A stretch of DNA of 64,000 bases from an uncultured delta proteobacterium (GCA_963787125.1 CAWBBV010000004.1:133192-197191); one strand, 5' to 3'; positions 288 to 46,438 are shown, counted from the stretch's first letter. The notes: generated from the sequence alone by a model not told the origin. Numbers and translations are program-made.

Positions 288-375
288 AATTAATCCTTCA
301 GGAATCATGATGTTTTGTTGTCCAACGGCTCGGGAGATCACCGGGCGGGTTTTTGGCCCGGTGTATCTGCCTTGT

Positions 376-2275
376 GTACGCCCGTCATGGGCGTGAACTT
401 ATGGGGTGCAAGTCCCCTGTACGGTGAATCCAACACTGTCGCGATGACAGCGTAAACCAAGTACTAGCCGAAGGCAAGGGCGTCTCCGCGAGGAGGGGTC
501 TGGAGGAAGCCGGAGCGCAAAGCTATGAGCCGACGAACAGAAACAGCATACAAGGCCATCATCCGGGCAAGTCAGCACAACATGACGAAGTCCCTCGGGT
601 TCAGGAGAAATGGTAAATGCTGCGGTTGTGTAGCCACAGTTCACGTTCTTATCCGGGGAGATCTGCTCCGCATGCCATTGATTCCTGATGGCGCGGCATC
701 TGGTAACAGCTGCCGTGATGGAGCAGAAGTCAGCAGAAGCCATAGTAGGCGAAGGACGTTGCCGCAAGCGATCCGGCAACTGGAAACAAGCCCGGGAGAG
801 TCCGGGAAGCCTTACCCCGCCGAAGGGCCGAACGATAGAAAAGGGGAGGAGCCCCAATGAGCTTTCATGACATATCGAACCCGTCCGGGGGAATGCCCAT
901 GGAGCGCGTCATTGACCAGCCAACCCCGGAGCAGCACCTACTGGAGCGGATATTATCCAGTGTGAACATGGAGCAAGCGTGGAAACGGGTCAAAGCCAAT
1001 AAGGGCGCACCCGGCGTCGATGGCATCACCATCGAACAATTCCCCGACCATACCCGTTCTCACTGGAACACTATTCGCGAATCGCTAATGACAGGCAGTT
1101 ACCAACCTTTGCCGGTAAAGCGGGTAGAGATTCCCAAAGCAACGGGTGGAACCCGTCCGCTGGGGATACCCACTGTACTTGACCGGCTGATCCAACAGTC
1201 CATTGCCCAAGTGTTGACACCGATCTTCGATCCGGACTTCTCCGCATCGAGCTTCGGTTTCCGTCCCCGTCGGTCAGCAAAAGATGCTGTCCGAAAGGTG
1301 CGGGAGTACATCCAGCAGGGATACCGGATTGCCGTGGATATTGACCTTGCCAAGTTCTTCGACACGGTCAACCATGATCTGCTCATGCACCTTGTGAGCA
1401 AGAAAGTTCACGACAAGCGGGTACTAGCCCTGATCGGCAAGTACTTACGGGCAGGTGTAGAGGTAAAAGGGCGTCTTGAAAAGACCAGACTGGGTGTCCC
1501 CCAGGGTGGCCCACTCTCGCCGCTTCTAGCCAACATCCTGCTCGACACACTGGACAAAGAACTTGAGAAACGCGGTCACAAATTCGTCCGCTATGCAGAC
1601 GACTTCGTCATCCTCGTCAAAAGCCAGCGCGCCGGCGACCGGGTAATGGAAGGAATGAAAACCTTCCTGACCAGCAAACTCAAGCTCACAGTCAATGAAA
1701 CCAAGAGTGCGGTAGCAAGAACATCCCGCATCGACTTCCTTGGTTTTATCTTCAGTGGCACCCGCATCATCTGGTCTGACAAGGCATACAAGGAATTCAG
1801 ACGCCGCGTCAAACAGTATACCGGAAGAAGCTGGCGGGTCTCCATGAAGTACCGGATGTACAAACTGGCTCAATATCTCCGTGGCTGGATGGGGTACTTC
1901 GGCATCTCGGAGTATTACCGGGAAATCCCGGAAATAGACGGCTGGATACGGCGCAGGATACGGCTCTGCTACTGGAAGCAGTGGCGCTGGTGTCGTACCA
2001 AGATTCGGGAGCTGCTCAAGTTGGGGACGGAGAAATTCACCGCCATCCGAGCGGGCCTGAATAGAAGTGGCCCGTGGGCCATGTCCCGAAGACTTGCAGC
2101 CCATACCGGTTTGACCAACAAATGTCTGAAGGATCAAGGTTTATTATCTGTCAAAGAACTGTGGGTGAAGCTTCACTACCCGGCTACGGCCCGGTAATTC
2201 TATCGAACCGCCGGATGCGGACCCGCATGTCCGGTGGTGTGGGGGCTGGGGGAGAAAAACCCCCGGCTACCCGAT
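376..2275 (+). mobile_element. Group IIC (attC-targeting) intron, copy 1, 1900 bp
   Basis: 5' GTACGCCCGTCATGGG, short IIC domain V GAACCGCCGGATGCGGACCCGCATGTCCGGTGGTGT, 3' end CTACCCGAT; inserted at TTGT/T, antisense to the cassettes. Confidence 0.95.
857..2197 (+). CDS. ltrA: Group II intron reverse transcriptase/maturase, no endonuclease domain
   Basis: NKGAPGVDG, RPLGIPTVLDR, GVPQGGPLSP, YADD motifs. Confidence 0.95.
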   Translation: MSFHDISNPSGGMPMERVIDQPTPEQHLLERILSSVNMEQAWKRVKANKGAPGVDGITIEQFPDHTRSHWNTIRESLMTGSYQPLPVKRVEIPKATGGTRPLGIPTVLDRLIQQSIAQVLTPIFDPDFSASSFGFRPRRSAKDAVRKVREYIQQGYRIAVDIDLAKFFDTVNHDLLMHLVSKKVHDKRVLALIGKYLRAGVEVKGRLEKTRLGVPQGGPLSPLLANILLDTLDKELEKRGHKFVRYADDFVILVKSQRAGDRVMEGMKTFLTSKLKLTVNETKSAVARTSRIDFLGFIFSGTRIIWSDKAYKEFRRRVKQYTGRSWRVSMKYRMYKLAQYLRGWMGYFGISEYYREIPEIDGWIRRRIRLCYWKQWRWCRTKIRELLKLGTEKFTAIRAGLNRSGPWAMSRRLAAHTGLTNKCLKDQGLLSVKELWVKLHYPATAR

Positions 2276-2329
2276 TGGAACGTCACTCATTTTCATATTC
2301 AAAGGCAGCCCCGAATTTCCCCTACACTT

Positions 2330-2785
2330 CTATTTTTTCAAAACCATTCCGTGTGCATAAGCATTCTTACCTATCAACTCACACTGTTGACCATCTCTAG
2401 TTTTGATTTCAAGTTCAGCTTGCTGATCTATATTAAAATCATTAAGAAGCATCGCAGCAACCTTGTCCGTACTACTGAAAAAAGTTAAAAGTTGTCCATC
2501 ATCTAAATGCAAATCTAGTGAATTCAAAACTCCCCACGATTTGTTTTTCTTCTTCACTAAAACCTGATGCTTCCCAACTTCAAAAACATGCTTTTTGCCT
2601 TTTAATGATCTGATTGTCGAAAGAAATAAAAGGCCTGTAATGATAAACACAATTCCGAGTGGTTTGTTGAATCCGGTCAGATCAACGTCCATGGATCGGT
2701 ATCTAATAATAGGTGAAGAGAGCATATCAATGCCTAAAATGACACAAATGCCACACATTAAGATGCCGGTTAATGTTCTGCTCAT
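2330..2785 (-). CDS. Cassette gene, 2-TM membrane protein
   Basis: ORF track 2330-2815; start moved to the ATG downstream of the attC that has an AAGGA RBS; two hydrophobic segments. Confidence 0.7.
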   Translation of the reverse strand: MSRTLTGILMCGICVILGIDMLSSPIIRYRSMDVDLTGFNKPLGIVFIITGLLFLSTIRSLKGKKHVFEVGKHQVLVKKKNKSWGVLNSLDLHLDDGQLLTFFSSTDKVAAMLLNDFNIDQQAELEIKTRDGQQCELIGKNAYAHGMVLKK

Positions 2786-2803
2786 CCTATATTCCTTTTT
2801 ATT

Positions 2804-2860
2804 TTCCAACGCCATAAGCCTGACCGGCGGTTTTTGGGCCGGTCTTGGCGCTCGTTGAAC
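2804..2860 (-). repeat. attC site
   Basis: ttccaac gccataagcctgaccggc...gccggtcttggcg ctc gttgaac. Confidence 0.9.
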
Positions 2861-3246
2861 TTATTCATTCTCACTCTTTTGTTATGAATACGACTCTTTC
2901 TCCAGCGGCAAGCATACTTCGGCCACATTCTTCAGCTCTATGAATAAAGCTGGTTGAAAGACCAAATTTCATTACTGTCTCCCACTACAAAGCTGATATC
3001 TCAATATGACAGTGCCTTGTGTGCTAATAATGACTTAGCATTGCAAATTATTTTATCTAAAGATTTTTCAGCTTCTGTTTGATTATCAAGATTTTTTGCC
3101 CTGCTTGTAGCAATACTTTTATATAATTTACTAACAACTATGAAGAATGGTATATTTCCGTATATCATTACTGCTAATAGCACATCTAGAGTATGTTTAT
3201 TTATAAGTCTATTGATAGTATCTGACTTGTTGAGCGGTTCAATAAT

Positions 3247-4920
3247 CCCGAATCCGCAAATCTCTGCCGGACACATTCAGGCAGCGTGAGTTCGGGGGTA
3301 TTTTTTCAGTGAGCTCCCTTTGATGGGAGTCGAAAACACATATTTTCTCTAAAATTCAAAAAGTGACGCGCTATTTGCCTCTTCAGACGATGTTTTTTGC
3401 CGGACTGAAGACGAACTGCCCCCTTGTTCTTGCTTTTTTGTTCTTTGACAATCTCGTTTTCAGCTTTTCTTTAGCAGGTTACCGGCTGAAGCCTGCCGAT
3501 TCTTGCCTGAATCCTGTCAGGGCGAAGTTTCTCCAGCCACCAGCCGTTGACTTTCAGCAGGCTCTTGCGGGCATGATTGACCACGATTGCCGCACTACGC
3601 AGCAGATAATCCTGAATGGTCTTGATCCGCCGCCGTACCGGTGTTAAGTGACTGTCCATCTCTCCGTCACCAGCTTCATCCCGCCACTGCTGACCCAGCA
3701 GGATAAGCAGGTTGTAGGCCATGGTCCCCAAGGTAAGGAATACTTCGTTGACACTGAAGGTCTGGGAGGGGAGTCGCTCCAGATCCAGGTCGTGCTTGAG
3801 TTCCTTGTTCGCTTCTTCTGCAGCTCCACGCCCCCGATAGAGTTCGAATGCCCGCTGCGGGGTGACTTCTTTGGGTAGATTGGTGGCCAGTATGTGGTAG
3901 CGGACGTCATTGAGCAGCAGTGGCTGTCCTTTCTCGTCTACGGACTTGATCTGAACACAGAAGACGAAACGGCGGGGAGTTTTCCAGCCGCTTGGGGTGT
4001 ACTCGAATTCTCCGTAAAACTCGCCGCCGAAGTCAGTGACTTTGAGGCTCATAACATCGACATCGAGATTCTCGTTTACCACTCGATCCAATGCGCCGCT
4101 GGCTCGGGCCTTGACCAGATAGTATGCTTTAGCATCTTCGCTGGCTTGAACAGTTTTGATGCTGTAAAGCCCGGCATCGTAGCGAAACAGGAGCTTGTTC
4201 CGATCTATTTTCTCGGGGAGCAGCTCTGCCGTTTCCCTGATGAATTCGTCAATCCGTTCAACAGCTTTCTCTCTGCCTGGCAACAGCCAGTGATTGATGC
4301 AGAACCGTTCGCGCCCGAGAACTGCAAATACAGGGGTGTAGCAAAGTTTACCGTTGTAAGTGGTTTGAACCCCTTCCCGTTTGGGAGCAAATTGCTCGAA
4401 GATACTCGGGTCAATGTCGCAGGGAATATAGCCTTCAGCCCCCGGTTCAGCTGTGATGCTTGCTTGGGAAACAATCTTTGCGCCGACCCGCTTGAGACCG
4501 GTTATTTCCTCTTTGCCATATTTCTCCAGATGCATGGCAACAGCTCGCTCTTTGGGGAGTTTGCCAAAGCCGAGCGATTTCTTGAGCAGTTTCTCTTCCC
4601 GTGCCAGCCAGGCAAGATCAGTGTAGCTGGTCCGGCGTAAGGAAATGTTTAGTAACAGCGGGATTAGATGTTCCTCTTCCCGGAAGCCGTAGTCGATCTT
4701 CTTGACCCGCACTTCGTTTCTGATGGCTCGAATCAGATCGAGACGGCGTATGAGGGTGGTGAGCAGCTCCAATCCTGCTACGGAAGTTAGCGTCTGTCGG
4801 GCTGCTACATACTGAAAACCGAGATTGTCTTTCACCATTCGGGTGAGCTCCTTCACTACAATTATGTGAAGGATTATAGCATGTTACACTATATTAACCC
4901 AATAGTTTTGCGGATTGGGG
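3247..4920 (-). mobile_element. IS1380-family insertion sequence, 1674 bp
   Basis: Terminal IRs CCCGAATCCGCAAA / CCCCAATCCGCAAA; 5-bp target duplication ATAAT at 3242-3246 and 4921-4925. Confidence 0.92.
3471..4856 (-). CDS. IS1380-family DDE transposase
   Basis: DID...RYDAGLYS...YRGRGAAEEANKELK...PSQTFSVN motifs. Confidence 0.9.
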   Translation of the reverse strand: MKELTRMVKDNLGFQYVAARQTLTSVAGLELLTTLIRRLDLIRAIRNEVRVKKIDYGFREEEHLIPLLLNISLRRTSYTDLAWLAREEKLLKKSLGFGKLPKERAVAMHLEKYGKEEITGLKRVGAKIVSQASITAEPGAEGYIPCDIDPSIFEQFAPKREGVQTTYNGKLCYTPVFAVLGRERFCINHWLLPGREKAVERIDEFIRETAELLPEKIDRNKLLFRYDAGLYSIKTVQASEDAKAYYLVKARASGALDRVVNENLDVDVMSLKVTDFGGEFYGEFEYTPSGWKTPRRFVFCVQIKSVDEKGQPLLLNDVRYHILATNLPKEVTPQRAFELYRGRGAAEEANKELKHDLDLERLPSQTFSVNEVFLTLGTMAYNLLILLGQQWRDEAGDGEMDSHLTPVRRRIKTIQDYLLRSAAIVVNHARKSLLKVNGWWLEKLRPDRIQARIGRLQPVTC

Positions 4921-7592: not shown

Positions 7593-8561
7593 TTAAGCTA
7601 ACCCAATTCCAATTTCATAGCACCTTGTCGGCTCTTCCTGATAATAACCTTCATATATGTACCCTGCTCCTTCAAAAGAATTCTTGATTGCTCCAATGGA
7701 CGGATGCTGAAGAACCCAGCCAGCAGTCTCCCGGAGGATATATGAGCAGAACAAATCTAAGTGCAGCATAGTGTCCAAAAGGCCTGCTCCGACAACACGA
7801 GCACCAGGCTTGAAGTAAGGGCGCATAATCTTTAAAAGACCAACACGCTCTTCAGTGGCAAGGCCACAGAGCACGCCAATGATGAGCCCATAATCAGCAT
7901 TTTGTTTATACATTTTGTGGAGTCTCGTCATGCTTTTCTCTACAAAATGGATGTTGTTCAGCTTGTGTTGTTTGACCAGCTGTATCCCGTAGTTAATGGC
8001 CGAAGCATCGGTATCGATGCAATGAAATTCAACACGTTCAGCAAATTCCGGATTGTCGAGTACCAGTTGAATACAATTACGTCCTGGGCCGGAACCGAGG
8101 TCAAGAACCAAGCACTTTTCTTGATGTTTCAATATGTTGTTGATGTGTTCTGCTGCCTTTTCATTGACAGCACGGAAACGTGCTTCCAGAGAAATGAACG
8201 CCGGCAGGCTGGCTTTAAAGAAAAGATCTATCGGTGTATGTACCTCTTCAAAACCATACATTTTCTCAAGCATCGTGTAAGTTCCGGGATACTCCGACAA
8301 GTCAGGAATGATGGTACTGTTATTTTGAAAATGCTGAAAAACTTCTGACTCGCCAATGTCAGCGAGGTTTTTACCTGCAAGATAGCCATTAACGAGGCCG
8401 TCACTGATATTTTTAGGCAGATTTGATAATAGAGCCTGAGCGTGTTCGGTTTTTAGATACCGTTCCTTTGCTTCAATTGGTTGTTCATAGGCTGCGACCA
8501 AATTTGGACAGGAAATTGACTTGCCTGCCATTGCATTTTCACCACGTTGATTTGCTCCCAT
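7593..8561 (-). CDS. Class I SAM-dependent methyltransferase, cassette gene
   Basis: VLDLGSGPG motif I, CIDTD motif II; GGAGG RBS before the ATG at 8561. Confidence 0.85.
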   Translation of the reverse strand: MGANQRGENAMAGKSISCPNLVAAYEQPIEAKERYLKTEHAQALLSNLPKNISDGLVNGYLAGKNLADIGESEVFQHFQNNSTIIPDLSEYPGTYTMLEKMYGFEEVHTPIDLFFKASLPAFISLEARFRAVNEKAAEHINNILKHQEKCLVLDLGSGPGRNCIQLVLDNPEFAERVEFHCIDTDASAINYGIQLVKQHKLNNIHFVEKSMTRLHKMYKQNADYGLIIGVLCGLATEERVGLLKIMRPYFKPGARVVGAGLLDTMLHLDLFCSYILRETAGWVLQHPSIGAIKNSFEGAGYIYEGYYQEEPTRCYEIGIGLA

Positions 8562-8636
8562 TTTGCCTCCCGTTGTTTTGATGTTCAACGTCATAAGCCT
8601 GACCGGCCGGTTTTTAGGGCCGGTCCTGGCGCTTGT

Positions 8637-10537
8637 GTACGCCCGTCATGGGCGTGAACTTATGGGGTGCAAGTCCCCTGTACGGTGAATCCAACACTGT
8701 CGCGAGACAGCGTAAACCAAGTACTAGCCGAAGGCAAGGGCGTCTCCGCGAGGAGGGGTCTGGAGGAAGCCGGAGCGCAAAGCTATGAGCCGACGAACAG
8801 AAACAGCATACAAGGCCATCATCCGGGCAAGTCAGCACAACATGACGAAGTCCCATGGGTTCAGGAGAAATGGTAAATGCTGCGGTTGTGTAGCCACAGT
8901 TCACGTTCTTATCCGGGGAGATCTGTCCGAATTGCCGTTCCAGATACGTGGGGCTGCGCTCTGCATGGCAACATGCCGGGTATCGGACAGAAGTCAGCAG
9001 AAGCCATAGTAGGCGCGAGACGTTGCCGCAAGCGATCCGGCAACTGGAAACAAGCCCGGCAGAGTCCGGGAAGCCTTACCCCGCCGAAGGGCCGAACGAA
9101 GAAAGGGGAGTAGCACCAATGAGCTTTCATGACATAAAGAACCCGTCCGGGGGAATGCCTATGGAGCGCGTCATTGATCAGCCAACCCCTGAGCAGCACC
9201 TACTGGAGCGGATACTCTCCAGTGCGAACATGGAGCAAGCGTGGAAACGGGTCAAAGCCAATAAGGGCGCACCCGGCGTCGATGGCATCACCATCGAACA
9301 ATTCCCCGACCATACCCGTTCTCACTGGAACACTATTCGCGAATCGCTAATGACAGGCAGTTACCAACCTTTGCCGGTAAAGCGGGTAGAGATTCCCAAA
9401 GCAACGGGTGGAACCCGTCCGCTGGGGATACCCACTGTACTTGACCGGCTGATCCAACAGTCCATTGCCCAAGTGTTGACACCGATCTTCGATCCGGACT
9501 TCTCCGCATCGAGCTTCGGTTTCCGTCCCCGTCGGTCAGCAAAAGATGCTGTCCGAAAGGTGCGGGAGTACATCCAGCAGGGATACCGGATTGCCGTGGA
9601 TATTGACCTTGCCAAGTTCTTCGACACGGTCAACCATGATCTGCTCATGCACCTTGTGAGCAAGAAAGTTCACGACAAGCGGGTACTAGCCCTGATCGGC
9701 ACGTACTTACGGGCAGGTGTAAAGGTAAACGGGCGTCTTGAAAAGACCAGACTGGGTGTTCCCCAGGGTGGCCCCCTCTCGCCGCTTCTTGCCAATATCC
9801 TGCTCGACACACTGGACAAAGAACTTGAGAAACGCGGTCACAAGTTCGTCCGCTATGCAGACGACTTCGTCATCCTCGTCAAAAGCCAGCGCGCCGGCGT
9901 CCGGGTAATGGAAGGGATGAAAACCTTCCTGACCAGCAAACTCAAGCTTAACGTCAATGAAACCAAGAGTGCGGTAGCAAGAACATCCCGCATCGACTTC
10001 CTTGGTTTTATCTTCAGTGGCACCCGCATCATCTGGTCTGACAAGGCATACAAGGAATTCAGACGCCGCGTCAAACAGTATACCGGAAGAAGCTGGCGGG
10101 TCTCCATGAAGTACCGGTTGTATAAACTGGCTCAATATCTCCGTGGCTGGATGGGGTACTTCGGAATATCGGAGTATTACCGTGAAATTCCGGAAATAGA
10201 CGGTTGGATAAGGCGCAGGATACGGCTCTGTTACTGGAAACAGTGGCGCTGGTGTCGTACCAAGATCAAGAATCTACTGGCACTTGGTACGCAACTTGGC
10301 ACCGCCATCCGAGCGGGCCTGAATAGAAGCGGCCCGTGGGCGATGTCCCGAAGATTGGCTGCTCATACCGGTTTGACCAACAAATGTCTGAAGGATCAAG
10401 GCTTATTATCTGTCAAAGAACTGTGGGTGAAGCTTCACTACCCGGCTACGGCCCGGTAATTCTATCGAACCGCCGGATGCGGACCCGCATGTCCGGTGGT
10501 GTGGGGGCTGGGGGAGAAAAACCCCCGGCTACCCGAT
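8637..10537 (+). mobile_element. Group IIC (attC-targeting) intron, copy 2, 1901 bp
   Basis: Same GTACG start, domain V/VI and CCCGAT end as copy 1; TTGT/T insertion site. Confidence 0.95.
9119..10459 (+). CDS. ltrA: Group II intron reverse transcriptase/maturase
   Basis: Near-identical to 857-2197; start set by homology with copy 1. Confidence 0.95.
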   Translation: MSFHDIKNPSGGMPMERVIDQPTPEQHLLERILSSANMEQAWKRVKANKGAPGVDGITIEQFPDHTRSHWNTIRESLMTGSYQPLPVKRVEIPKATGGTRPLGIPTVLDRLIQQSIAQVLTPIFDPDFSASSFGFRPRRSAKDAVRKVREYIQQGYRIAVDIDLAKFFDTVNHDLLMHLVSKKVHDKRVLALIGTYLRAGVKVNGRLEKTRLGVPQGGPLSPLLANILLDTLDKELEKRGHKFVRYADDFVILVKSQRAGVRVMEGMKTFLTSKLKLNVNETKSAVARTSRIDFLGFIFSGTRIIWSDKAYKEFRRRVKQYTGRSWRVSMKYRLYKLAQYLRGWMGYFGISEYYREIPEIDGWIRRRIRLCYWKQWRWCRTKIKNLLALGTQLGTAIRAGLNRSGPWAMSRRLAAHTGLTNKCLKDQGLLSVKELWVKLHYPATAR

Positions 10538-10588
10538 TGGACATTGGCCTTTTCACTCGTTAAGTTACAAAACTTGCCAGCGTTCCTT

Positions 10589-11119
10589 TCAGGTAGCGTG
10601 GCCTAGAATAAATTGCAAACGCATATTTATTGACTCTAGCTCATTATCTGAAAAGAGTGGAACATCAATTAGCCGAAATCCAAGTCTCATGTAAACCTCA
10701 CGGAGTTGCCTTGATACAGCAACAGCTTGGTCAGGGCTATCTTTTCTCTGGGCGTCGGTGCGATACTCAGGTAACATTTGTAAGAAGAATACATCTTGTT
10801 CATAATTGGCGTTATTTATATCTTGATATATCGAATCACTTATAGGGCACTGCGCAACTTCTGCGAAAGCAATGGGGTCTACCAATGATCTGTCGAGAAA
10901 TGCAACATTACCAACGAGACCTCTTTCGCGCTTCACTTGGAGCTGGCGACATGCTTCGCAGAAAATCTCTTGGTTATCCCATGGGAATATATTTTCTGCT
11001 TGAATCAACATTCTCGATGATTCTTCCAGCACTAATTGTCCTCTTTTTGATATTAATTCTATCAAAGATGACTTCCCTGAATTAGGTCCACCTGTTAAAA
11101 TGTATTTTTTTATATTCAT
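10589..11119 (-). CDS. AAA_28 / NadR-like P-loop kinase or ATPase
   Basis: YILTGGPNSGKSS Walker A, FLDRSLVD, YRTDAQRKD motifs. Confidence 0.82.
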   Translation of the reverse strand: MNIKKYILTGGPNSGKSSLIELISKRGQLVLEESSRMLIQAENIFPWDNQEIFCEACRQLQVKRERGLVGNVAFLDRSLVDPIAFAEVAQCPISDSIYQDINNANYEQDVFFLQMLPEYRTDAQRKDSPDQAVAVSRQLREVYMRLGFRLIDVPLFSDNELESINMRLQFILGHAT

Positions 11120-11168
11120 AAGTTGTAGGTTTTTGCACGTTGTTAGCAGTATATTGTCAATTTTAAAG

Positions 11169-12974
11169 TTATTTATCCTGTAGCCTATCCAATGGAGGCT
11201 TCTGAGTTAATTCATGTTGTTTCGTATCATCTTGTGGTGCTGAAACAAGTTGAGCAGGATTGAAAAAATATACAATGGCAAATACAGCTAAAGCTCCACC
11301 AGCCTTCAACCATGAACCTAAATTTAAATTTATAAAGCCAGGTATAAAAGCGGCAATGCCTGCTATTGCAAGTGCTAAAATTATTCTAAAAACATTGTAT
11401 TGAAAGTTAGTTGGATTTGGGAAGGCAATTGCAAGAACCAGCATTGTAATTATAAATACGATCCCAAATGAAAAAATTAATATTTTTTCGGTGCCCATTT
11501 TTGTATTCTCTTTTTCAGATTCCATAACTCTCCCGTCATCTGTTGATAATCCCGAATTAAAATTCGGCTGATGTCCATCCTCCATTACAACTTGATTCAA
11601 AGTAACGTTTTTTGCACTTGCATGCGAACCAACCGCTACGGCCTGTTTGACATTGTTTTGATCGCCCATAATGATATTCCTACCTATAAATATTTTTGTT
11701 CCTGCGTGAATCTTCTTGTTGGCAACAACATTACCAACCACCTCAGCTAAAACATTAGAACCAATATTTTCGATGATACGGTTATTGTCGTTTAAAGAAT
11801 CTGAACATAACGTGTCTTGTGACTCTGACATAATTGACTCATAGAATATATCAGAGATGAGTTGCGATGCATTGTCAGGCGAATTAATGGCGAATAAAAC
11901 ATTAGATGCTATCTCATTATTTAAAATATTATAGATGTTCTGTTTTTCTGATATGTCAAGTTGATCAACTAGATACATAGCGATTTTATTTTTTACATGA
12001 CTATTTTTGACTGTTTTATAGCCTGAGGAAAGTATTTCAGACATTTTAACATCGCTAATAAATGCAGATGACTTTAATAAATTATTAATAGCAGCTAAAA
12101 TTACAAGATCATCTTGGCCGCCGTTAACTGCTGACATCATTTTATCTACGACAAAACCATACTCGCTATAATTTGCCATTGCGGTAATAACTGATTCAGC
12201 ATAAAGAGGGTCTGTCTGGAAATAGGAATGCTCAACCTCATTAACTAATAAATGTGGGACATCACGATGCGTTGTGTATGGGAGGCCTTTTACAGCCCAT
12301 TCTCTTGCTCGGACATTCGTTTCTTTCTCTAAAACATAAGTATAGTTTACTAAATCTGACTCGTCTGCAAATTCTTTGACTGCATACATTGCCCATTCTC
12401 TGACAAGATAATCATCATCATGGAATGACTCCTTGAGGGCCGTTTTAATTTCAGATGTAATATCAGATTTGTTTCCGATTGATAGCGCAGCCCATTTCCG
12501 CACATGACTTTTGCTGTGCGATAGAGCTGACATAAGATACTTCATAAGTTCAGGGCTATAATCTTTATAACCCCACGATTTAATAACGCCAATATCAAAA
12601 TCATTTTTAGAACCAAGTTCCACAGGATAGATGTTACTCAAGTTATAGTTGCTTACCTCCAAACACTTCGTTGCAGCGATCAGCCATTCTCTTACATCTT
12701 CATCGAAGATTTGTTTTGTTTTTTGTAAAAGTGCATCAATGGCTGCTACGCCAGCTTCAATAATGGCAAACGTATATGCAAACCATCTGATTACTTTAGG
12801 GTGTTCTTCACTACTAAAGAGGTTAATAAGAATAAGAATCGCAGGAACATTATTTGTATAATAAACCTTTTCTGAACAAATATTCTGTAGGGCTCTGACA
12901 CGCAAAAGCGGGTCAGTGCTTGTAAGTTGGTGGAAGATGAATTTGTGGTTCCGAGTGTTATTCATTGATGGCAA
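11169..12974 (-). CDS. HEAT-repeat protein with a low-complexity linker and a C-terminal 3-TM domain
   Basis: Repeated VRxWA/VREWA HEAT-PBS-like helices; C-terminal FPNPTNFQYNVFRIILAL...AGGALAVFAIVYFFNPA hydrophobic domain. Confidence 0.8.
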   Translation of the reverse strand: MPSMNNTRNHKFIFHQLTSTDPLLRVRALQNICSEKVYYTNNVPAILILINLFSSEEHPKVIRWFAYTFAIIEAGVAAIDALLQKTKQIFDEDVREWLIAATKCLEVSNYNLSNIYPVELGSKNDFDIGVIKSWGYKDYSPELMKYLMSALSHSKSHVRKWAALSIGNKSDITSEIKTALKESFHDDDYLVREWAMYAVKEFADESDLVNYTYVLEKETNVRAREWAVKGLPYTTHRDVPHLLVNEVEHSYFQTDPLYAESVITAMANYSEYGFVVDKMMSAVNGGQDDLVILAAINNLLKSSAFISDVKMSEILSSGYKTVKNSHVKNKIAMYLVDQLDISEKQNIYNILNNEIASNVLFAINSPDNASQLISDIFYESIMSESQDTLCSDSLNDNNRIIENIGSNVLAEVVGNVVANKKIHAGTKIFIGRNIIMGDQNNVKQAVAVGSHASAKNVTLNQVVMEDGHQPNFNSGLSTDDGRVMESEKENTKMGTEKILIFSFGIVFIITMLVLAIAFPNPTNFQYNVFRIILALAIAGIAAFIPGFINLNLGSWLKAGGALAVFAIVYFFNPAQLVSAPQDDTKQHELTQKPPLDRLQDK

Positions 12975-12978
12975 ACTC

Positions 12979-14169
12979 TCATGACAAGTCTTCTAACAGC
13001 TTTTCCCAATTACTTATTATGCAATCATCGCCATAACCATTTCTGAATAAATCTTTATCATATGATTGTCCGTCTTTACGGATTCTCATTCCGTCTGGTG
13101 ATATTTCAGAAATTATTTTAATACTTCCATCAAGAGTAAATCCATATACAAAACACAAATCAATTAACTCATATCCTGCATTTTTAAGTAAATCTTGCAA
13201 CACACTAAAGGCATTGCTTGAAGTGTTTTCCAATTGTTCTGGATCAAGTCCATAGTTTATTATGTAATCTCGTGGTATCGTTATATCTTTGGGGTCGCAT
13301 CGATAATCAAATCTTACTATTGGTTTTTTAAAAGGCATATTAGGATAAAAGAGGCCTGGGCAATCAGTTATTGTTGTGCCAACAGCCGTTTTTTTAACAA
13401 TTACTTCGAAGGGTAAAGAATAACAGTAGTCGCATGAGTATGAATTTGAACTTAATCTATTGTAATCAATAACTTCAATTGAGTTGCTTTGTAATGCTCT
13501 GATGAACTTTTCGCAAATTGAGTTTCTGAGTAATTCAGTACCTACAACATTTTCGCTCCTGTGATATGTGACTGAATCTAACGAAGGCTTAAGCTCTACA
13601 ATAATATTGTTGCATTTCCGGTAAACTATTTTACTTCTACCCTCTTTGATTTTATGTTGTTTGCCTGATATTACATCTTGATATCTATTGAGTATCAACT
13701 CAACTATTTCATTTACGGTCATATTATCAGTTTGTAAATACATTGCGTTCCAATTGTCAGCCAGTCTGTAATAATGAGGTTTATAAAAACCTTCACTATC
13801 AACATCTTCAGGCTCATTTTTACTCGATAATCTTCCTCTTAAAGTTTCAATATCTGCATCAAGAGAAACAAGCAAATCCCTGTCAGATATTAGCTTCAAG
13901 AAACTTAGAGGATGGTTAATCATGGTTTGCGGCGTTAGATGATACCTGTCAAAAATACCCACGTTCGGAAGCGATTCGAGGATATCAATTGAAAGAGACA
14001 TCGCAGCGTTGGGATCTTTGAACCATAACTCATAGATATCTTTACGGCCAGCGAATGGGGCATACACTTCAGCCCCTAAGCGTTGAGAGAGTATTCTTGC
14101 AATACTTGTTTTTCCCACTCCATTTGGACCCTCCAACATTATCCTTGATTCCAGTTTTGGTAACTCCAT
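12979..14169 (-). CDS. Fusion of a thymidylate/dNMP-kinase-like domain and a divergent SAICAR synthetase (PurC)-like domain
   Basis: EGPNGVGKTS and FDRY (kinase); EGRSK, PFEVIVK, EISPDGMRI, DKDLFR (PurC-like). Confidence 0.8.
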   Translation of the reverse strand: MELPKLESRIMLEGPNGVGKTSIARILSQRLGAEVYAPFAGRKDIYELWFKDPNAAMSLSIDILESLPNVGIFDRYHLTPQTMINHPLSFLKLISDRDLLVSLDADIETLRGRLSSKNEPEDVDSEGFYKPHYYRLADNWNAMYLQTDNMTVNEIVELILNRYQDVISGKQHKIKEGRSKIVYRKCNNIIVELKPSLDSVTYHRSENVVGTELLRNSICEKFIRALQSNSIEVIDYNRLSSNSYSCDYCYSLPFEVIVKKTAVGTTITDCPGLFYPNMPFKKPIVRFDYRCDPKDITIPRDYIINYGLDPEQLENTSSNAFSVLQDLLKNAGYELIDLCFVYGFTLDGSIKIISEISPDGMRIRKDGQSYDKDLFRNGYGDDCIISNWEKLLEDLS

Positions 14170-14285
14170 GTAATTCCCCTTTTATATTAAACCGGTTTTA
14201 CCGAAATAATCGTAGTTTCATCTATGGCAACATCAGCCGCACTCCATAATCAAACAAGGTAATAGCGCATCATTTCTTTCCTCCT

Positions 14286-14354
14286 GTTCAACGGGGCTGC
14301 GCCTGACCTGCCGGGCGGGTGTTTGCCCGGTCATGGTCTTGGCGCGTGTTGGGC
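14286..14354 (-). repeat. attC site
   Basis: gttcaac...gcgcctgacctgccgggc/gcccggtcatggtcttggcgc...gttgggc. Confidence 0.92.
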
Positions 14355-19785: not shown

Positions 19786-22034
19786 ACCGGGTAGGTCAGG
19801 AGCCTTTCGGCTCCTTTCCCCCCTCAGAACCGTACGTGACAGTTTCCCGTCATACGGCTCAAGCCCTCCAAAGTAATCTCCCTCTCGGGATACCCGGCTA
19901 TCTGCTTCTTTCCTCGGTGTTGTTGTCCCTTCACGCCGCTTTTCGGGCGGCGCGACCTGCTCGCCTTCTTTGTTGCTCGGCTCTTCGCGCCTTGAAGTAT
20001 GCTTCATACTCCGGGTCGAAGGGATTGGCGGCACCGCGAATCTTGATGTGTCTCTCGATCTTGGTGCTGGTAGCGTGAATGAGTGTTACCCGGCGTTTTC
20101 CTTCCGGGGTTTTCTCCATCACGGAGAAGTACGTGCTCACGGGGGTGCTGTGCCAGTATGTCTTCGTCAGCCAGCGCTTCCCCTTGTGCGGATGCCTTCT
20201 CCTTGCCCAATCCCGCAGGTAGCGGTAGATTTGGCTGTCCAGTGCGGCGAAGGTGGCTTTTGCGGCGATGTTCCGGTGATAGTTGCTCCAGCCCCGAATG
20301 ATCGGATTCAAGGCGCGGATCATATCACCGGCTTTCATTGCCGAGAATTTCCGGATCGTCTCCCTGATTCTGGTCAGGATGGTTCTGTAGTTGCTCCTGG
20401 CCGGTTTCGTTAGGAACTTCCCGCTGTACTTGCGCGGGTGTTGCCCCAGAAAGTCGAATCCGTCCTCTATCCGCGTTATCCGGGTTTTCTCCGGGGAGAG
20501 GGTGAGACCTCTTTCTTGAAGAAACCTTTCTACCGCTGGTTTGATCGTCTCTTCGAGAAGTTCTTTCGTCTTCCCGGTGATGACGAAGTCGTCGGCGTAG
20601 CGGATAACGTTGACTTTGGTGCGGTAAGGGGTGACGGCTTTTACTGCCGCTTCCAGACCGTCCAGAGTCATGTTGGCCAAGAGCGGGGAGATGATTCCCC
20701 CTTGCGGGGTTCCCGCTTTGGTCGGATAGAGTCTGCCTTCGTCGAAGTACCCTGCGTTCAGCCACTGCCGGAGCATAAGACGATCCATGGGGATATTGCT
20801 CATGAGCCAGTCATGGCCAATCTCGTCGAAACAGGCTTTGATGTCTCCTTCCAGTATCCATTGTGCCGAGTACTTCTTTGCCAGTCCGATGTAGCATTGG
20901 TGGATGGCGTCGGCGCAACTTCGATACGGGCGGAATCCGTATGAATTGGGATCACCCTTAGTCTCGGCCACCGGTAACAGTGCTTGTGCGTAAAGCGCTT
21001 GCATAGCCCTGTCATGCATGGTGGGGATACCCAAAGGGCGCATCTTGCCGTTCTTCTTCGGTATGTAGACCCGCCGTAGTGGCCGGGCTTGATAACCGCG
21101 ACGTTGCAAGGTGTGTACAGCTTTCATTCTCTGCTTCGGCGTGTACCAGATTGCTCCGTCCACGCCGGGGGTTTTTCTTCCTCGATTGGAAACAACCCGT
21201 TTGACGGCTAATGCTTTGCCGGCAAACGAGTGGGTCAGAAGCCATTGCAGGGTTTTCACTCTGCCGCGGCGACCTTCCCTGACAGCCTTTGCGATACGGA
21301 TTTGCAGTCTTCGGACTTCGCGGCGGGCTTTCTGCCAGTTTATGGCTTTCCAGTCGTTGCCGCTGGCGGAGGGTGCACCAGTCAATCTTGCGATTGCCGC
21401 CATTTGCTTTCCCTCCCAAGGAAGATTCTCCAAACGATCTCGCAATGGAGCACCGGCATTGGACGTCAGCTCCCTTTCGGGCCGAGTGATGTTTCAACCC
21501 GTATCCGTCCCATTACAGGGCGGCATTCGCTTCTTCCGGCCTCTTACTCCCGCACTCCCGACAGTGTGCCTTACGGTTTCACCTGCTCCAGTCTACCGGA
21601 GCGGAAATACGGGGTTTCCACGTTCCACGTCTCTGACGATGGGTGACTTAGGTCCATTCTGTACACCGGCAGCACTATTGTCCCCGCAGGGGCACCGTTA
21701 CATCCCCTGACCGGCTGCATACCTTTTGGTTCAAGCCTGTCAGCCTCATTTGGCTTGCTCCCCTTGACGGCGCGAGCGAACGTTCACTTGTGTTGACCAT
21801 ATCACCTTTGAATCCTAGCCCTCACCCGGATCAAGGCTTCCAGGAGGGCGGTCGCCTCACGGTTTCCGCCCCTCCCGCAACAGCGGAATTCGGCTACATT
21901 GTTGGAAGGGCTCCGCACCAGCATGGATGCACCATGGCAGCACGCCTTCCTAGGATACCCGCGGGGGAACACGGGGTCTGGTCAGAATAATCATCATTCA
22001 GCCAGACAGTCATCAACGCGACATCGTGTCGCGA
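19786..22034 (-). mobile_element. Group II intron (IIB-like, non-canonical ends TCGCG...CCGGT), 2249 bp, inserted in an attC R' box
   Basis: Full-length domain V GAGCCGTATGACGGGAAACTGTCACGTACGGTTC; removal restores GTTA|GCTG, the exact complement of the cassette's R'' CAGCTAAC. Confidence 0.88.
19931..21403 (-). CDS. ltrA: Group II intron RT/maturase with RVT_N-type N-terminus, no HNH domain
   Basis: NRGRKTPGVDG, GTPQGGIISP, YADD; GGAGG RBS before the ATG at 21403 (track start 21445). Confidence 0.93.
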   Translation of the reverse strand: MAAIARLTGAPSASGNDWKAINWQKARREVRRLQIRIAKAVREGRRGRVKTLQWLLTHSFAGKALAVKRVVSNRGRKTPGVDGAIWYTPKQRMKAVHTLQRRGYQARPLRRVYIPKKNGKMRPLGIPTMHDRAMQALYAQALLPVAETKGDPNSYGFRPYRSCADAIHQCYIGLAKKYSAQWILEGDIKACFDEIGHDWLMSNIPMDRLMLRQWLNAGYFDEGRLYPTKAGTPQGGIISPLLANMTLDGLEAAVKAVTPYRTKVNVIRYADDFVITGKTKELLEETIKPAVERFLQERGLTLSPEKTRITRIEDGFDFLGQHPRKYSGKFLTKPARSNYRTILTRIRETIRKFSAMKAGDMIRALNPIIRGWSNYHRNIAAKATFAALDSQIYRYLRDWARRRHPHKGKRWLTKTYWHSTPVSTYFSVMEKTPEGKRRVTLIHATSTKIERHIKIRGAANPFDPEYEAYFKARRAEQQRRRAGRAARKAA

Positions 22035-22095
22035 TAACGGGGCCGAGGCGCACCGGCGGAGCGTAGCGAAGACCAAGTGCCGCCCATTGTTCGGC
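22035..22095 (-). repeat. attC site whose R' box is cut by the IIB-like intron
   Basis: taac ggggccga GGCGCAC...GTGCCGCC catt gttcggc. Confidence 0.85.
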
Positions 22096-23706: not shown

Positions 23707-23768
23707 TCCCAACGGCTTCGCAGTTGACCCGCCGTCTTTTTGGGCGGTGTCCAACGGCGTGGTTATAC
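23707..23768 (-). repeat. attC site
   Basis: tcccaac...GTTGACCCGCC/GGCGGTGTCCAAC...gttatac. Confidence 0.88.
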
Positions 23769-24896: not shown

Positions 24897-24989
24897 GTTC
24901 AACGGCTTCGCGCATGACCTGCGTGGAGGAAGGAGTAACAATGAAAAAGGATAATGTGAAACCGCGACAGGTCGATGCGCTTGTTATGC
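24897..24989 (-). repeat. attC site (93 bp) whose loop contains an RBS and start codon
   Basis: gttcaac...GCGCATGACCTG/CAGGTCGATGCGC...gttatgc. Confidence 0.9.
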
Positions 24990-25238: not shown

Positions 25239-25295
25239 GCATAACGCCATAAGCCTGACCGGCGGTTTCTTGGCCGGTCTTGGCGCAAGTTGGAC
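25239..25295 (-). repeat. attC site, same family as 2804 and 8583
   Basis: gcataac gccataagcctgaccggc...gccggtcttggcg caa gttggac. Confidence 0.92.
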
Positions 25296-28126: not shown

Positions 28127-29482
28127 ATGACACCTGTGTCGAATATGATTTTTAGTCAATATGAGTTTATCCTCAAAGAACTACATATTCCGGTTGCCCT
28201 GTTTGCTGATTACAAGAAATGGCTGCGCTATTATTTGGATTACTGCGCGAAATATCTGGCGCAGGTTTCCAACAGTGAAAAGGTGCGTCTGTTTTTGGCA
28301 AAGTTACGCGAAAAGAAACAGACCGAGAAGCAGTGCCAGCAGGCAGTTCATGCAATATCACTTTATTTTGAGATGCAACGCCTTGAGATTCCGAAAGATA
28401 ATTCCTTGGAGAAACAAGATCAACAATGTCATGTCGCGCCGCCAGTACAGCAGGTCCAACCGATGTATATTCAGCGAAAATCCCAATATTGCGAGGCGGG
28501 GTATCAGGTAAAATCTTCCTCACCGGAATGGGACGCCTTGCTTGAGGTTATGGCGGGAGAGATAAAGGTCCGCCATTATTCTCGCCGGACATTAAAAACT
28601 TACGCCAACTGGTCAAGACAGTTTCAGCGCTTCCTGAAAAACAAACCGCCAGAGAGTTTATCAACCGCCGATGTGAAAGAGTACCTGACGTTTCTGGCGG
28701 TTAAGTGCAAAGTTGCCGCATCAACCCAGAACCAGGCGTTCAATTCTCTTCTTTTCCTGTATCGCCATGGACTGAAACGGGAATTCGGCCAGTTGCGCGA
28801 CGTGCCGCGGGCAAAGAAGTCACTTTACATCCCGACCGTGCTTTCCAGACCGGAAATAGACGCTATCCTGGCCCAGTTGTCACACCCTTTCAAACTCGTC
28901 GTCTACTTGCTATTCGGCTGTGGGCTTCGGAAATTCGAAGTGATGCAACTGCGGGTGAGGGATTTCAACTTCGACACTGGCAAACTAACAGTGCACGGCA
29001 AAGGCAATAAGGATCGGACCGTGCCGCTGCCGCAATCGATCATGTCTGAAATCAAGGCCCAGTTTGTGGCGGTGGGGAAGCTGCATGACCGTGATTTGGC
29101 AGCCGGGTACGACGGGGTGTTTCTGGATGATGCAGTGGAAAAGAAATATCCCAAAGCGCCGAAGGAGCTTATGCATCAATGGTTCTTTCCGCAACGGTCA
29201 TTGACGCTGGTTGAGGAGACCGGCCAGCGGAGGCGCTACCACCTCCACGCTTCCCAGTTTGAAGAGGCGCTCTATAATGCCGTCCACAAGGCAAAAATTA
29301 CAAAGCGTGTCACTGCGCATACCTTCAGACACTCCTTCGCAACCCATTTGTTGCAGGCAGGCTACGACATCCGCGTCATTCAGACTCTGTTGGGCCACGC
29401 CAGCCTGAAGACAACCATGATTTACACTCATTGTGTGCCGGTAATGACGATCAAGGAGCCGCGTAGTCCGCTGGATCTTTGA
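28127..29482 (+). CDS. intI: Integron integrase, long 451-aa form
   Basis: HYSRRTLKTY, ASTQNQAFNSLLFLY, catalytic R-K-HTFRH-LGH-Y, integron-specific insert QWFFP...RRRYHLH. Confidence 0.96.
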   Translation: MTPVSNMIFSQYEFILKELHIPVALFADYKKWLRYYLDYCAKYLAQVSNSEKVRLFLAKLREKKQTEKQCQQAVHAISLYFEMQRLEIPKDNSLEKQDQQCHVAPPVQQVQPMYIQRKSQYCEAGYQVKSSSPEWDALLEVMAGEIKVRHYSRRTLKTYANWSRQFQRFLKNKPPESLSTADVKEYLTFLAVKCKVAASTQNQAFNSLLFLYRHGLKREFGQLRDVPRAKKSLYIPTVLSRPEIDAILAQLSHPFKLVVYLLFGCGLRKFEVMQLRVRDFNFDTGKLTVHGKGNKDRTVPLPQSIMSEIKAQFVAVGKLHDRDLAAGYDGVFLDDAVEKKYPKAPKELMHQWFFPQRSLTLVEETGQRRRYHLHASQFEEALYNAVHKAKITKRVTAHTFRHSFATHLLQAGYDIRVIQTLLGHASLKTTMIYTHCVPVMTIKEPRSPLDL

Positions 29483-30054
29483 GGTGTGGATTTCGATGCA
29501 AACATTAAAGCATTCAAAAAGTTTGGCGCGCCGAAGATTTGTAACTTTACGGTATCATTCAACTGTTATGGTAAAAACCCCACCTTGTCGGCTGTTATTT
29601 CCATCCGCCAGCAGTCTCTCCTGTACTCTGTTAAAAGCAACTTTTGAGTCAACTGCCTTGTACGCAGAAAAAACGGAAACCGTGGATAAAGGCGGATTTA
29701 AAACCCTTATTACTTTTTGCCTGATCCGTTTTGATCCTCTTTTGCCGCCTGTACTGCGTCCGATCATTGCTTTAATTCGGAAATTCCGGTATGCCGGAAT
29801 TCTGTAACTTCAGGATATTATGAAACATAGTGCCCGGATTTTTGCCGGACAAGGTTTTTTGAGACCAGACAAAACTCACCAACATCTTCGCCCGCCAAAA
29901 CGTAAAAAACCGCTCTAGCAGCAGAAGCTGACAAGGAGCGGCTTTTCATCATTCACCAGTGACAACCATCAAACTCTCCAAACATGCGCGGGGTTCACCA
30001 CATTTGCCTTACAGCAGCGATTATTAGAAAATGAATGTCACTTCTTTCGAGTAA

Positions 30055-30080
30055 GTTCCCTTCGACTCCGCTCAGGGAAC
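30055..30080. repeat. REP-like hairpin GTTCCCTTCGACTCCGCTCAGGGAAC
   Basis: Short intergenic inverted repeat. Confidence 0.55.
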
Positions 30081-30198
30081 GGACGTACGCTGATTGGAGG
30101 TATCTTGTTGCACGGTCACAGCGCCTTTGTCAATGATTCTATTGACGTAAGGCGTTAAACGGAGTGGCCATAGTTACTTATGCAGAAAAAAACGCTGC

Positions 30199-32235: not shown

Positions 32236-32350
32236 AGGGTGCTTGTCATAGCAGATTGGAGTGAGCGATGCAAGAGGCGAGTTTCACAGCTGAAGCGGAT
32301 TTACTGTAATATCAGGCGCTTTCGGATTTGACGTGGCAGGTTGGTAGCAG

Positions 32351-35515: not shown

Positions 35516-35630
35516 GAACTCACGCTCAGATTAAATCGACAGTGGAATAGTATATCAGGTTAAATGTAATTGTGTTTTATTTATGGCAACAATATCTTTT
35601 TGTTGTCATGAAAGGCAGGTCTAAAGCAAA

Positions 35631-46420: not shown

Positions 46421-46438
46421 CTTACCAAGGAGCCTATC

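Follow-up and report, generated by a model that had tools for sequence, protein, structure and literature searches.

The window analysed here, a stretch of 64,000 nucleotides (nt) from an uncultured delta proteobacterium (GCA_963787125.1 CAWBBV010000004.1:133192-197191), holds a chromosomal integron, and one unit of its cassette array (10542-14292) consists of three minus-strand genes. These genes, all co-oriented according to open reading frame (ORF) calling, are g1, encoding a kinase-like domain fused to a SAICAR-synthetase-fold domain, g2, encoding a HEAT-repeat protein with transmembrane (TM) helices, and g3, encoding a small AAA_28 protein. The gaps between them are 4 nt for g1-g2 (13 nt if an ATG start is taken for g2) and 49 nt for g2-g3, as an earlier note made on the same DNA had claimed. 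The GC content of the cassette is 0.339, 0.375 and 0.337 in three 1-kb bins across 11001-14000, that is 0.34-0.38 against 0.50-0.63 in most core bins (30001-39000 and 43001-60000).

Limits of the cassette

The array lies beside the gene of a tyrosine recombinase (28127-29482, plus strand) with Phage_integrase and Phage_int_SAM_4 domains, which is divergent from the array and is labelled intI on the basis of these domains and of the array position. To the left of this gene are minus-strand genes, between which lie imperfect palindromes that are rich in GC and of the RYYYAAC...GTTRRRY type. A sequence profile was built from 13 attCs of the array, the two intron-split attCs being kept out as a positive control. 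It gave 15 matches at E<1e-3 between 321 and 26777, in one orientation throughout, and recovered both held-out sites (8584-8636 at 26.7 bits and 321-362 at 20.7 bits). Partial matches to the first model half only, at 23708-23748 (12.6 bits) and 24898-24923 (11.8 bits), are possibly decayed attCs.

The upstream boundary of the three-gene cassette is a GTTGAAC box (minus strand, 14292-14286) in the attC of the preceding cassette (14286-14354, 69 nt), which forms a hairpin of -39.3 kcal/mol and is the top profile match at 36.2 bits. A group II intron interrupts the attC that belongs to the cassette itself. The main (5') part of this attC at 8583-8636, which scored 26.7 bits when held out of profile building, is 82% identical to the attC at 2797-2835, and its cassette-proximal end (10542-10548, TTGGAC on the plus strand) lies past the intron. 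When the exon ends are joined across the intron they give GCGCTTGTTGGAC, the same as in the intact attCs at 2804-2860 and 25239-25295. The intron itself (8637-10541, boundaries +/-2 nt, plus strand) matches Rfam RF02001 at 127 bits as well as RF01998 and RF00029, is antisense to the cassette genes and contains a reverse transcriptase/maturase ORF (8948-10459; RVT_1 2.1e-41, and GIIM). In one RNA-library contig (run X2) the cassette end at 10537 runs directly into the attC letters and the intron is absent. Contigs alone fit two origins of this join, an allele without the intron or an antisense transcript spliced across the attC.

On neither strand of the cassette interior (10549-14285) did the profile give an attC match at E<=10, and a hairpin scan gave nothing stronger than about -0.25 kcal/mol per nt, against values of -0.37 to -0.63 in the listed real attCs. 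Moreover, the gaps of 4 and 49 nt cannot hold an attC because the attCs of the array measure 53-75 nt. As RNAalifold gave no consensus base pair for the MAFFT-aligned attCs, the profile scores sequence only, and a very divergent attC could therefore escape detection. Bounded by attCs of an array that lies beside an integrase, and with no attC found within it, 10542-14292 is confirmed as a single multi-gene integron cassette. The earlier note's claim of one AT-rich multi-gene cassette free of internal attCs is thus upheld by the attCs, the profile and hairpin scans, the short gaps and the GC content, and also by the ends of homology with a copy in a Planctomycetes metagenome-assembled genome (L001, described below).

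A 7-codon ORF encoding MMRYYLV (14250-14273, minus strand) comes immediately after the attC box, ~80 nt upstream of g1, and has an AGGAGG Shine-Dalgarno box. Its counterpart in L001, at about 1414-1437, encodes MMLYYLD, with two residues changed. Other cassettes of the array begin their gene where this small ORF sits, and it is possible, judging by its sequence and position, that it is a leader or translation-coupling ORF.

The conserved pair and the accessory kinase

The product of g1 (12979-14169, minus strand; 396 amino acids, aa) comprises a P-loop kinase-like part (residues ~1-165) and a PenC/CofB-like domain (~170-396). Pfam finds SAICAR_synt at residues 174-382 (1.5e-20) and weak, sub-threshold P-loop kinase matches at 9-121, while PHROGs gives thymidylate kinase (7.7e-08) and PurC (8.8e-25). 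In the AF2 (AlphaFold2) model (predicted local distance difference test, pLDDT, 86.9; predicted TM-score, pTM, 0.83) Foldseek superposes the N-terminal half on shikimate, adenylate and deoxynucleoside kinases and the C-terminal half on bacterial and archaeal PurC structures, the latter with a TM-score of 0.83-0.87 normalised by target length. The motifs Walker A (GxNxVGK), DR(Y/F)H, EGRSK, SEISPD and DKDLFR are unchanged in 12 of 12 family members, so that the SAICAR-synthetase fold comes with conserved ATP and phosphate motifs, and the DR(Y/F)H motif presumably corresponds to the DRY motif of thymidylate kinases. From motifs and model the N-terminus appears to be a thymidylate-kinase-like P-loop nucleoside monophosphate (NMP) kinase domain. 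A canonical PurC identity was tried for g1 and rejected, since it scores 26.7 bits against the TIGR00081 purC model, whose equivalog cut-off is 189.9, and does not group with PurC; the host genome (G000) has a separate canonical PurC of 257 bits. Among viral contigs the g1 search yielded canonical PurC alone, at 25-33% identity (best 80 of 175 relatives).

The gene g2 (11169-12974, minus strand) encodes 601 aa from a TTG or 598 aa from the ATG at 12965; the latter is the form in the protein collection (P0020) and the probable start. Pfam finds HEAT_2 (1.2e-10), and the layout consists of an N-terminal HEAT part (~1-370), a conserved GDQxNVxQAxAVG linker and three TM helices at 493-579 by a hydropathy scan. 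These Pfam and hydropathy results agree with the domain calls first made for the trio (kinase-PurC, HEAT/TM and AAA_28). Across the family alignment the HEAT part has the invariant motifs HPKVxRW, RxWAxLS, LVREW and RxxEWxVK. The C-terminus differs among the members. It consists of three TM helices in the window and in L001, of a PNP_UDP_1 domain in three of nine members (P0023, P0025 and P0026), and of a ~120-aa helical tail of no known family in five of nine (P0021, P0022, P0024, P0027 and P0028). Pfam gave nothing above noise on the g2 C-terminal modules. The PNP-type proteins match the PADLOC candidate PDC-M60C (2.7e-70, 4.6e-20 and 2.2e-21) and the model 'Effector PN-superfamily' of the cyclic-oligonucleotide-based anti-phage signalling system (CBASS) at 3.4e-16 to 4e-12.

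The constant part of the g2 family is therefore the HEAT domain and the TM part varies. By analogy, a varying C-terminal module of this sort resembles the pattern of defence effectors. Cap17-like PNP domains are described by Rousset et al. as cleaving ATP and as predicting immune function, and in a minority of Detocs operons the PNP gives way to TM or nuclease effectors (10.1101/2023.01.24.525353), a PNP/TM replacement that the g2 family has in common with Detocs. The earlier suggestion of a HEAT-repeat sensor fused to a membrane effector holds in so far as an effector-like C-terminal module varies; the TM part is not conserved, and a sensor role for the HEAT repeats, like signalling by the system, is something we infer.

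The TM module of g2 matches phrog_5814 (5.6e-30), and over 81 residues it shares 37% identity with the C-terminal end of a hypothetical phage P2 protein of 233 aa. The gene of that protein is placed between tail-fibre-assembly and sheath genes, a position which we take to be the Z/fun locus. PMC13586616 refers to Z/fun as a defence locus of P2. The gene is part of a two-gene insert at 2290-3252 of the P2 record L217 (NC_070905.1, gp23-gp22), and its product ends with the three-helix membrane module that g2 also has. PADLOC assigned no family to P2 gp22 or gp23. In the ESM Atlas the TM part falls among unnamed clusters of 125-138 aa scoring below 0.9, and viral contigs gave no close relative of the TM module and no g2 relative among 19 pattern matches. 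In comparison with L001, g2 of the window has an in-frame deletion of 474 nt, through which 158 residues behind the TM helices are gone. The junction (11188-11197) lies between 8-nt near-repeats, CCATTAGA and CTATTAGA, and at 11191-11193 every contig from four runs breaks off, its loose end being that of the long g2 form. As L001, L052 and the contigs of these four runs carry the long form, the deletion is private to this genome.

Both families are small. For g1, 12 full-length members were found among 19 hits in 5.8 billion proteins, and clustering at 50% identity leaves the family with a single representative among 1.84 billion; for g2 there are nine members in the 5.8 billion. Six of the eight non-window g2 hits lie on contigs sized as a g1-hit contig (5639, 3925, 5063, 3666, 3921 and 8320). 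In four of the five loci fetched for full-length g1 (L001, L052, L054 and L055) g2 follows g1 downstream at 6-13 nt, L001 and L052 being one element and P0028 being the protein of L055; in the fifth, L053, the contig ends 227 nt past g1. Order and spacing are kept down to 33-37% g2 identity, and g1 and g2 are neighbours wherever the flank is readable. The conserved unit is thus the pair of g1 and g2. Within it, basal g1 branches (P0012, P0007/P0008 and P0005) pair with PNP-type g2 and derived ones with helical or TM tails. For the complex of g1 with g2 residues 1-380 the prediction scores were 0.00 and 0.00, which speaks neither for nor against binding.

The closest copy is that of L001, whose sequence also occurs in L052. 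By blastn the trio is present there at 94% nucleotide identity, and homology covers 10538-14299 of the window, ending at both cassette ends. The trio in L001 has a GC content of 35.8% against 48-49% in its flanks. This contrast, together with 94% identity ending at the cassette ends, indicates a foreign and mobile unit. Upstream of the trio 14 bases, CAGCCCCGTTGAAC, are common to the window and L001, and at the 5' end in L001 there is a weak half-attC remnant (6.5 bits, E 0.6). Downstream of the trio (L001 5620-5700) the sequence is unrelated to the attC of the window (10538-10548 and 8583-8636), so the gene block is shared and the attC is not.

It is very improbable that the genes have no joint function, either through co-capture by chance or because g1 is a divergent PurC or purine-salvage enzyme. 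The conserved order and spacing at such low g2 identity and the invariant catalytic motifs of g1 argue against it, as does the presence of a canonical PurC in a host whose g1 falls below the purC cut-off, even though the function of the trio is read from sequence and the cassette lies ~14 kb from the integron promoter region with no standout promoter. RNA-library contigs of a 94-96% relative, which span most of the cassette in three runs from a single study and 28 of 30 bins in two, are a weak hint of expression that also counts against it, DNA carry-over being possible. The fraction of sampled words was <0.2 in each of 9 sequencing runs.

The third gene, g3 (10589-11119, minus strand), encodes 176 aa with a Pfam AAA_28 match of 5.9e-23 (82.3 bits, cut-off 27) and an invariant Walker A motif, GGPNSGK, in keeping with an AAA_28/kinase fold. 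In its AF2 model (pLDDT 91) Foldseek finds deoxycytidine kinase (dCK), deoxyadenosine kinase (dAK), thymidylate kinase (TMPK) and the kinase domain of NadR (8x7f, TMq 0.77, root-mean-square deviation 3.1). Sequence and model suggest a small nucleoside/nucleotide kinase-fold protein of the NadR type, although g3 stands alone without the nicotinamide mononucleotide (NMN) adenylyltransferase or helix-turn-helix domain and has 14% identity with NadR. It accompanies the pair in L001/L052 only (96% identity), no other homologue (n=11) lies on a contig of a size equal to that of a contig with the pair, and of 400 other genomes of the phylum that were sampled, one has it. Co-conservation, raised in the earlier note for the trio, therefore holds for g1 and g2 and not for g3, which occurs with them only in the 94% copy. 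This gene is accessory and outside the conserved unit.

Nucleoside-antibiotic relatives of g1

The origin of the C-terminal domain of g1 was examined in a maximum-likelihood tree of 43 rows, in which PurC was represented by the genome's own and viral sequences and which included no characterised PenC or CofB sequence. In this tree the domain nests in a clade of homologues adjacent to a short-chain dehydrogenase/reductase (SDR) of the PenB/CofA type or, in some cases, fused to adenosine deaminase. Canonical PurC is split from this g1/PenC-type clade by a 100/100 branch of length 3.93, the end branch of the genome's own PurC being 8.7, and the g1 domain has Bacteroidota and Balneolota members as its sister group, which is moderately supported (82/70 and 93/83). 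By sequence, the SAICAR-synthetase-fold domain of g1 is placed in the PenC/CofB clade. The 'amide-ligase' of the earlier note, understood as an ordinary PurC, has accordingly to be replaced by a domain of the PenC/CofB branch, with its link to the histidine pathway and 1,3-diazepines. CofB reportedly carries out, in the account of Ren et al. from 2020, an ATP-dependent cyclisation to 8-ketocoformycin 5'-phosphate. Key pentostatin enzymes are described as PenB, an SDR, and PenC, a SAICAR-synthetase homologue, with CofA and CofB as their coformycin counterparts (10.1101/728154, PMC12648386, PMC13055916). AdeA is presented as the SAICAR-synthetase core gene that traces pentostatin, coformycin, adechlorin and pyrazomycin clusters (PMC13055916). 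PenC, CofB and AdeA share fold and tree clade with the C-terminal domain of g1.

The nearest relatives outside the g1 family are proteins of ~240 aa with 39-46% identity across the PurC-like half, and they occur in Streptomyces, Kitasatospora, Nonomuraea, Micromonospora, Flavobacteriaceae and Fodinibius. Most of the examined loci of such stand-alone homologues have an adjacent SDR, with a haloacid dehalogenase (HAD) phosphatase of the Cof type and/or a major facilitator superfamily (MFS) pump nearby (L005, L002, L019 and L021); the homologue in L008 is accompanied by an HD-domain protein and an MFS pump. Pentostatin and coformycin clusters are recognised by a neighbourhood of SDR, HAD phosphatase and MFS pump. 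Streptomyces resistomycificus supplied one row of the tree (L041), and strain NRRL 2290 of this species is named as a formycin/coformycin producer in PMC8724604. In Kitasatospora (L049, 6822-8666) and Streptomyces (L024, 7110-8927) an adenosine deaminase is fused to the PenC/CofB-like domain, which on sequence grounds would join a presumed target-type enzyme and the inhibitor-making enzyme in one protein.

Outside the actinomycetes, the operon of L005 consists of unannotated genes for ~135-aa and ~488-aa proteins, a PenC/CofB-like gene, an SDR, a Cof-type HAD and a gene for a 331-aa protein with a weak TCAD9 match in Pfam. The ORFs of L003, L007 and L013 match those of L005 in size and are in identical order. 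The loci L003, L004, L005, L007, L011 and L013 come from Fodinibius, Flavivirga, Aureisphaera and Snuella. From such operons of PurC-like, SDR and HAD genes in Flavobacteriaceae and Balneolaceae we predict coformycin-type producers beyond actinomycetes.

A g1 profile search against 1.84 billion representatives gave 784 hits, 191 of them at E<=1e-10, and 15 were then scanned with Pfam. Among the distant relatives of full length, P0066 is a fusion of HisG, kinase and SAICAR_synt. P0063 and P0051 combine HisG with SAICAR_synt, the g1-profile match spanning the kinase part. In P0102 (1118 aa) and P0175 (999 aa) the domains His_biosynth (HisA), PRA-CH (HisI), PRA-PH (HisE), HisG and SAICAR_synt follow in one protein, so that by domain content these two appear to hold an early-histidine-pathway-to-diazepine route within a single polypeptide. 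Whereas PenC is tied to PenA, described as a HisG homologue (PMC12648386), the relatives of g1 are tied to histidine enzymes by fusion. Although g1 itself is without HisG or any other histidine-pathway domain, these fusions in its distant relatives suggest a histidine-pathway substrate. In pentostatin and coformycin producers the PenC/CofB branch acts together with histidine-pathway enzymes in forming the 1,3-diazepine nucleotide, and the fusions link the kinase-PurC-like module to the very steps by which PenC/CofB is supplied. The presumed substrate would be available in the host, because G000 has two HisG-family hits, one of which adjoins HisI.

The association with a kinase also recurs apart from the family. 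In L006, an alphaproteobacterial metagenome-assembled genome, the kinase and PurC-like parts are adjacent separate genes (hhalign probability 95%), and in L050 and L051 PurC-like genes adjoin thymidylate-kinase-like genes. Comparison of the g2 family by hhalign with the 488-aa protein of L005 and the 386-aa and 227-aa proteins of L006 gave probabilities of 0.1-0.2, and thus no HEAT partner in these loci.

These relatives would allow the cassette to be seen as a compact biosynthetic or metabolic unit for a coformycin-like nucleoside analogue, directed against competitors or serving purine economy and not acting on phages. In such a unit g1 would make the nucleotide, g3 and the kinase domain would set its phosphorylation state, and g2 would be a scaffold, a membrane anchor, an exporter or, in the PNP forms, a processing nucleosidase. 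The nesting of the PurC-like domain among antibiotic-cluster enzymes, the fusions to histidine-pathway enzymes, the kinase association without a HEAT partner in L006, L050 and L051 and the housekeeping genes beside the L053 relative would all be expected of it. We nevertheless consider it rather improbable. An SDR, a HAD phosphatase and an MFS exporter, which the stand-alone homologues have, are missing from the cassette and from beside the pair in L001, L054 and L055, and none was seen at the pair in four contexts, while a kinase in place of the phosphatase favours retention in the cell. Moreover, a processing enzyme is unlikely to be swapped for three TM helices or a 120-aa tail, and the PNP variants are nearer to immune effectors than to metabolic PNPs.

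A candidate anti-phage module

The contexts of the pair elsewhere contain several defence-type genes. In L001 the Lamassu genes LmuA, LmuC and LmuB (LmuB at 1.4e-96) are found ~1.5 kb downstream, with ParB and ParA-like genes on both sides. A TIR-NACHT-HD protein and a Ser/Thr kinase are encoded near the pair in L055, and in L054 there is a PemK/MazF toxin gene, the small ORF before it being read as the antitoxin (MazEF). No attC-like hairpins were found around the pair in L053-L055, and the module probably comes from low-GC bacteria, since the GC content of these three contigs (0.35-0.39) is similar to that of the pair. Integron cassettes as such have been reported as stores of defence systems (10.1101/2024.07.02.601686). 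As the earlier note had anticipated, no named system was recognised: with PADLOC-DB 2.0.0 no model matches g1 beyond P-loop noise (E>=4.8e-4), nor the g2 of the window, nor g3. Our literature search also found no link between SAICAR-synthetase homologues and anti-phage systems.

From the sequences, the reading that we favour, with evenly balanced confidence, is that the cassette carries an undescribed two-gene conflict module of g1 and g2, most likely anti-phage, plus the accessory kinase g3. In this reading g1 is a bifunctional enzyme acting on nucleotides, whose C-terminal domain would turn a histidine-pathway intermediate into a 1,3-diazepine-type nucleoside 5'-phosphate and whose N-terminal kinase domain would phosphorylate the resulting 5'-monophosphate further. 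The antibiotic clusters, unlike g1, would reduce, dephosphorylate and export the compound by means of the SDR, the HAD phosphatase and the MFS pump. With a kinase instead of phosphatase and export, the product would therefore stay in the cell as a di- or triphosphate. The NadR-type kinase fold of g3 could feed this route. In g2 the family-specific HEAT domain would be coupled to a swappable killing module, under the control of the g1 product or of g1 itself, or alternatively with the HEAT domain sensing infection, and the effector would then halt the infected cell.

A more specific form of this proposal, which we put forward tentatively and regard as unlikely in itself, is a new immune class controlled by a coformycin-like nucleotide, a 1,3-diazepine derived from a histidine-pathway intermediate, with g1 as its maker and phosphorylator and the HEAT domain of g2 as its receptor. 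The nucleotide might be an alarm signal that switches on a membrane or ATP-nucleosidase effector, or it might be a metabolite 'antitoxin' that restrains the effector until infection cuts its supply.

Comparison with known systems gives only partial likenesses. Unlike PenC and CofB, g1 includes an NMP-kinase-like domain by fusion and has a HEAT-effector protein as its partner, and it is found on mobile AT-rich DNA, whereas those enzymes belong to actinomycete antibiotic clusters that have a dehydrogenase, a HAD phosphatase and an MFS exporter, all lacking in the cassette. With the Cap17-like PNP effectors of CBASS and Detocs, and with PDC-M60C, the likeness is the PNP_UDP_1 end in three of nine g2 members. 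The g2 of the window differs from CBASS and Detocs in having TM helices and a HEAT part as N-terminal partner, and no CD-NTase, SAVED, histidine kinase or receiver; components A and B of PDC-M60 are unmatched by g1 or g3. Prokaryotic viperins are nucleotide-modifying enzymes with adjacent nucleotide kinases that keep the analogue phosphorylated. Viperin is a radical S-adenosylmethionine (SAM) enzyme whereas g1 has the SAICAR-synthetase fold, and we know of no viperin operon with a HEAT-effector partner. In DSR2 the HEAT-repeat region is the sensor. Like g2 in our reading, DSR2 has HEAT-type repeats and a cell-stopping effector in one polypeptide (PMC11263360), a likeness by description only, and whereas DSR2 acts alone with a Sir2 NADase, g2 stands with g1 in every readable context.

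The resemblance to viperins raises another explanation, in which the phosphorylated product of g1, made with the aid of g3, poisons a phage polymerase, deaminase or nucleotide enzyme and g2 is an independent one-protein sensor-effector whose HEAT repeats would bind a phage protein, as those of DSR2 do. Two kinase folds stand beside a nucleotide-modifying enzyme and the product would be kept as a di- or triphosphate, the host is without a PF00962 deaminase to harm, and a HEAT-containing protein acting by itself has a precedent in DSR2, which is activated by a phage tail-tube protein (PMC11263360, where 'HEAT repeat' occurs 11 times). Independent systems would however be expected to separate, and g1 and g2 are adjacent in every readable context. 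As PNP-tailed g2 goes with basal g1 branches and g3 is dispensable in most members, we find this explanation quite unlikely.

Several observations weigh against an anti-phage module as we propose it. The sequences show the identities of the domains, the clade to which g1 belongs, the joint conservation of g1 and g2, the swapping of effectors and the mobility of the cassette, while the substrate of g1, its product as a diazepine, the way in which control runs and a defence phenotype of any kind are all inferred. The lack of PADLOC matches given above belongs here as well. Identity of 40-46% to the PenC/CofB-type clade does not, at the sequence level, fix the reaction of g1, whose product may differ from coformycin-type compounds because the cassette is without an SDR (PenB/CofA) partner. 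There are no PF00962 (adenosine/AMP deaminase) hits in G000, a genome that is 99.96% complete, so any deaminase target is not obvious in the host. The N-terminal part of g2 otherwise falls in generic HEAT clusters of the ESM Atlas, which makes a scaffold role conceivable, and the g2 of the window may be impaired by its loss of 158 residues. Defence-type genes are near the pair in three of four non-window contexts, four independent contexts being a small sample, and in L053 g1 stands behind the housekeeping genes PBP1 and SelB. None of 15 other cassette ORFs of the array matches PADLOC at 1e-4, a mad2-like methyltransferase being the sole exception among the array genes of the window, and the array is therefore not visibly a defence bank. 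The promoter and terminator scan of the region showed no excess, with 11 sigma-70 promoters found against 14.1 expected.

The methyltransferase just mentioned is a SAM methyltransferase of the neighbouring cassette (7593-8594, minus strand) that matches PADLOC mad2, a component of the MADS system, at 1.3e-11. A second group II intron (about 371-2279, plus strand), 97-100% identical to the copy at 8637-10541, is found in another attC; these two near-identical introns occupy the same point of different attCs, both antisense to the cassettes. A third group II intron (19786-21976, minus strand; Rfam class D1D4-7) shares the strand of the cassettes and adjoins the attC at 22032-22095. The cassette region flanked by the attCs at 2804 and 6553 contains a DDE transposase (3471-4856, minus strand; DDE_Tnp_1_4 2.3e-29) beside a 540-aa TPR-like protein.

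For the biology of integrons, the cassette is a clean case in which several genes move together within a single integron cassette. Two features, the different downstream end of this gene block in L001 and the intron within its attC in the window, bear on how cassettes are made and moved, and the shared 14 upstream bases set against the differing downstream ends bear on the gain or loss of attCs by cassettes. What is new in the pair is a modular defence-type operon built on an enzyme family not known from immunity, the operon type itself being known. Should the pair prove to be a defence system, immunity would have a new enzyme family linked to it, the SAICAR-synthetase homologues that expand rings in nucleoside-antibiotic pathways, HEAT repeats would be seen as the constant partner of swappable effectors, and nucleoside-antibiotic biosynthesis and anti-phage immunity would become connected. 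The reading that we favour predicts an intracellular phosphorylated diazepine nucleotide, and if such a nucleotide is indeed made, the coformycin/pentostatin chemistry of actinomycetes would have a counterpart in mobile immune modules.

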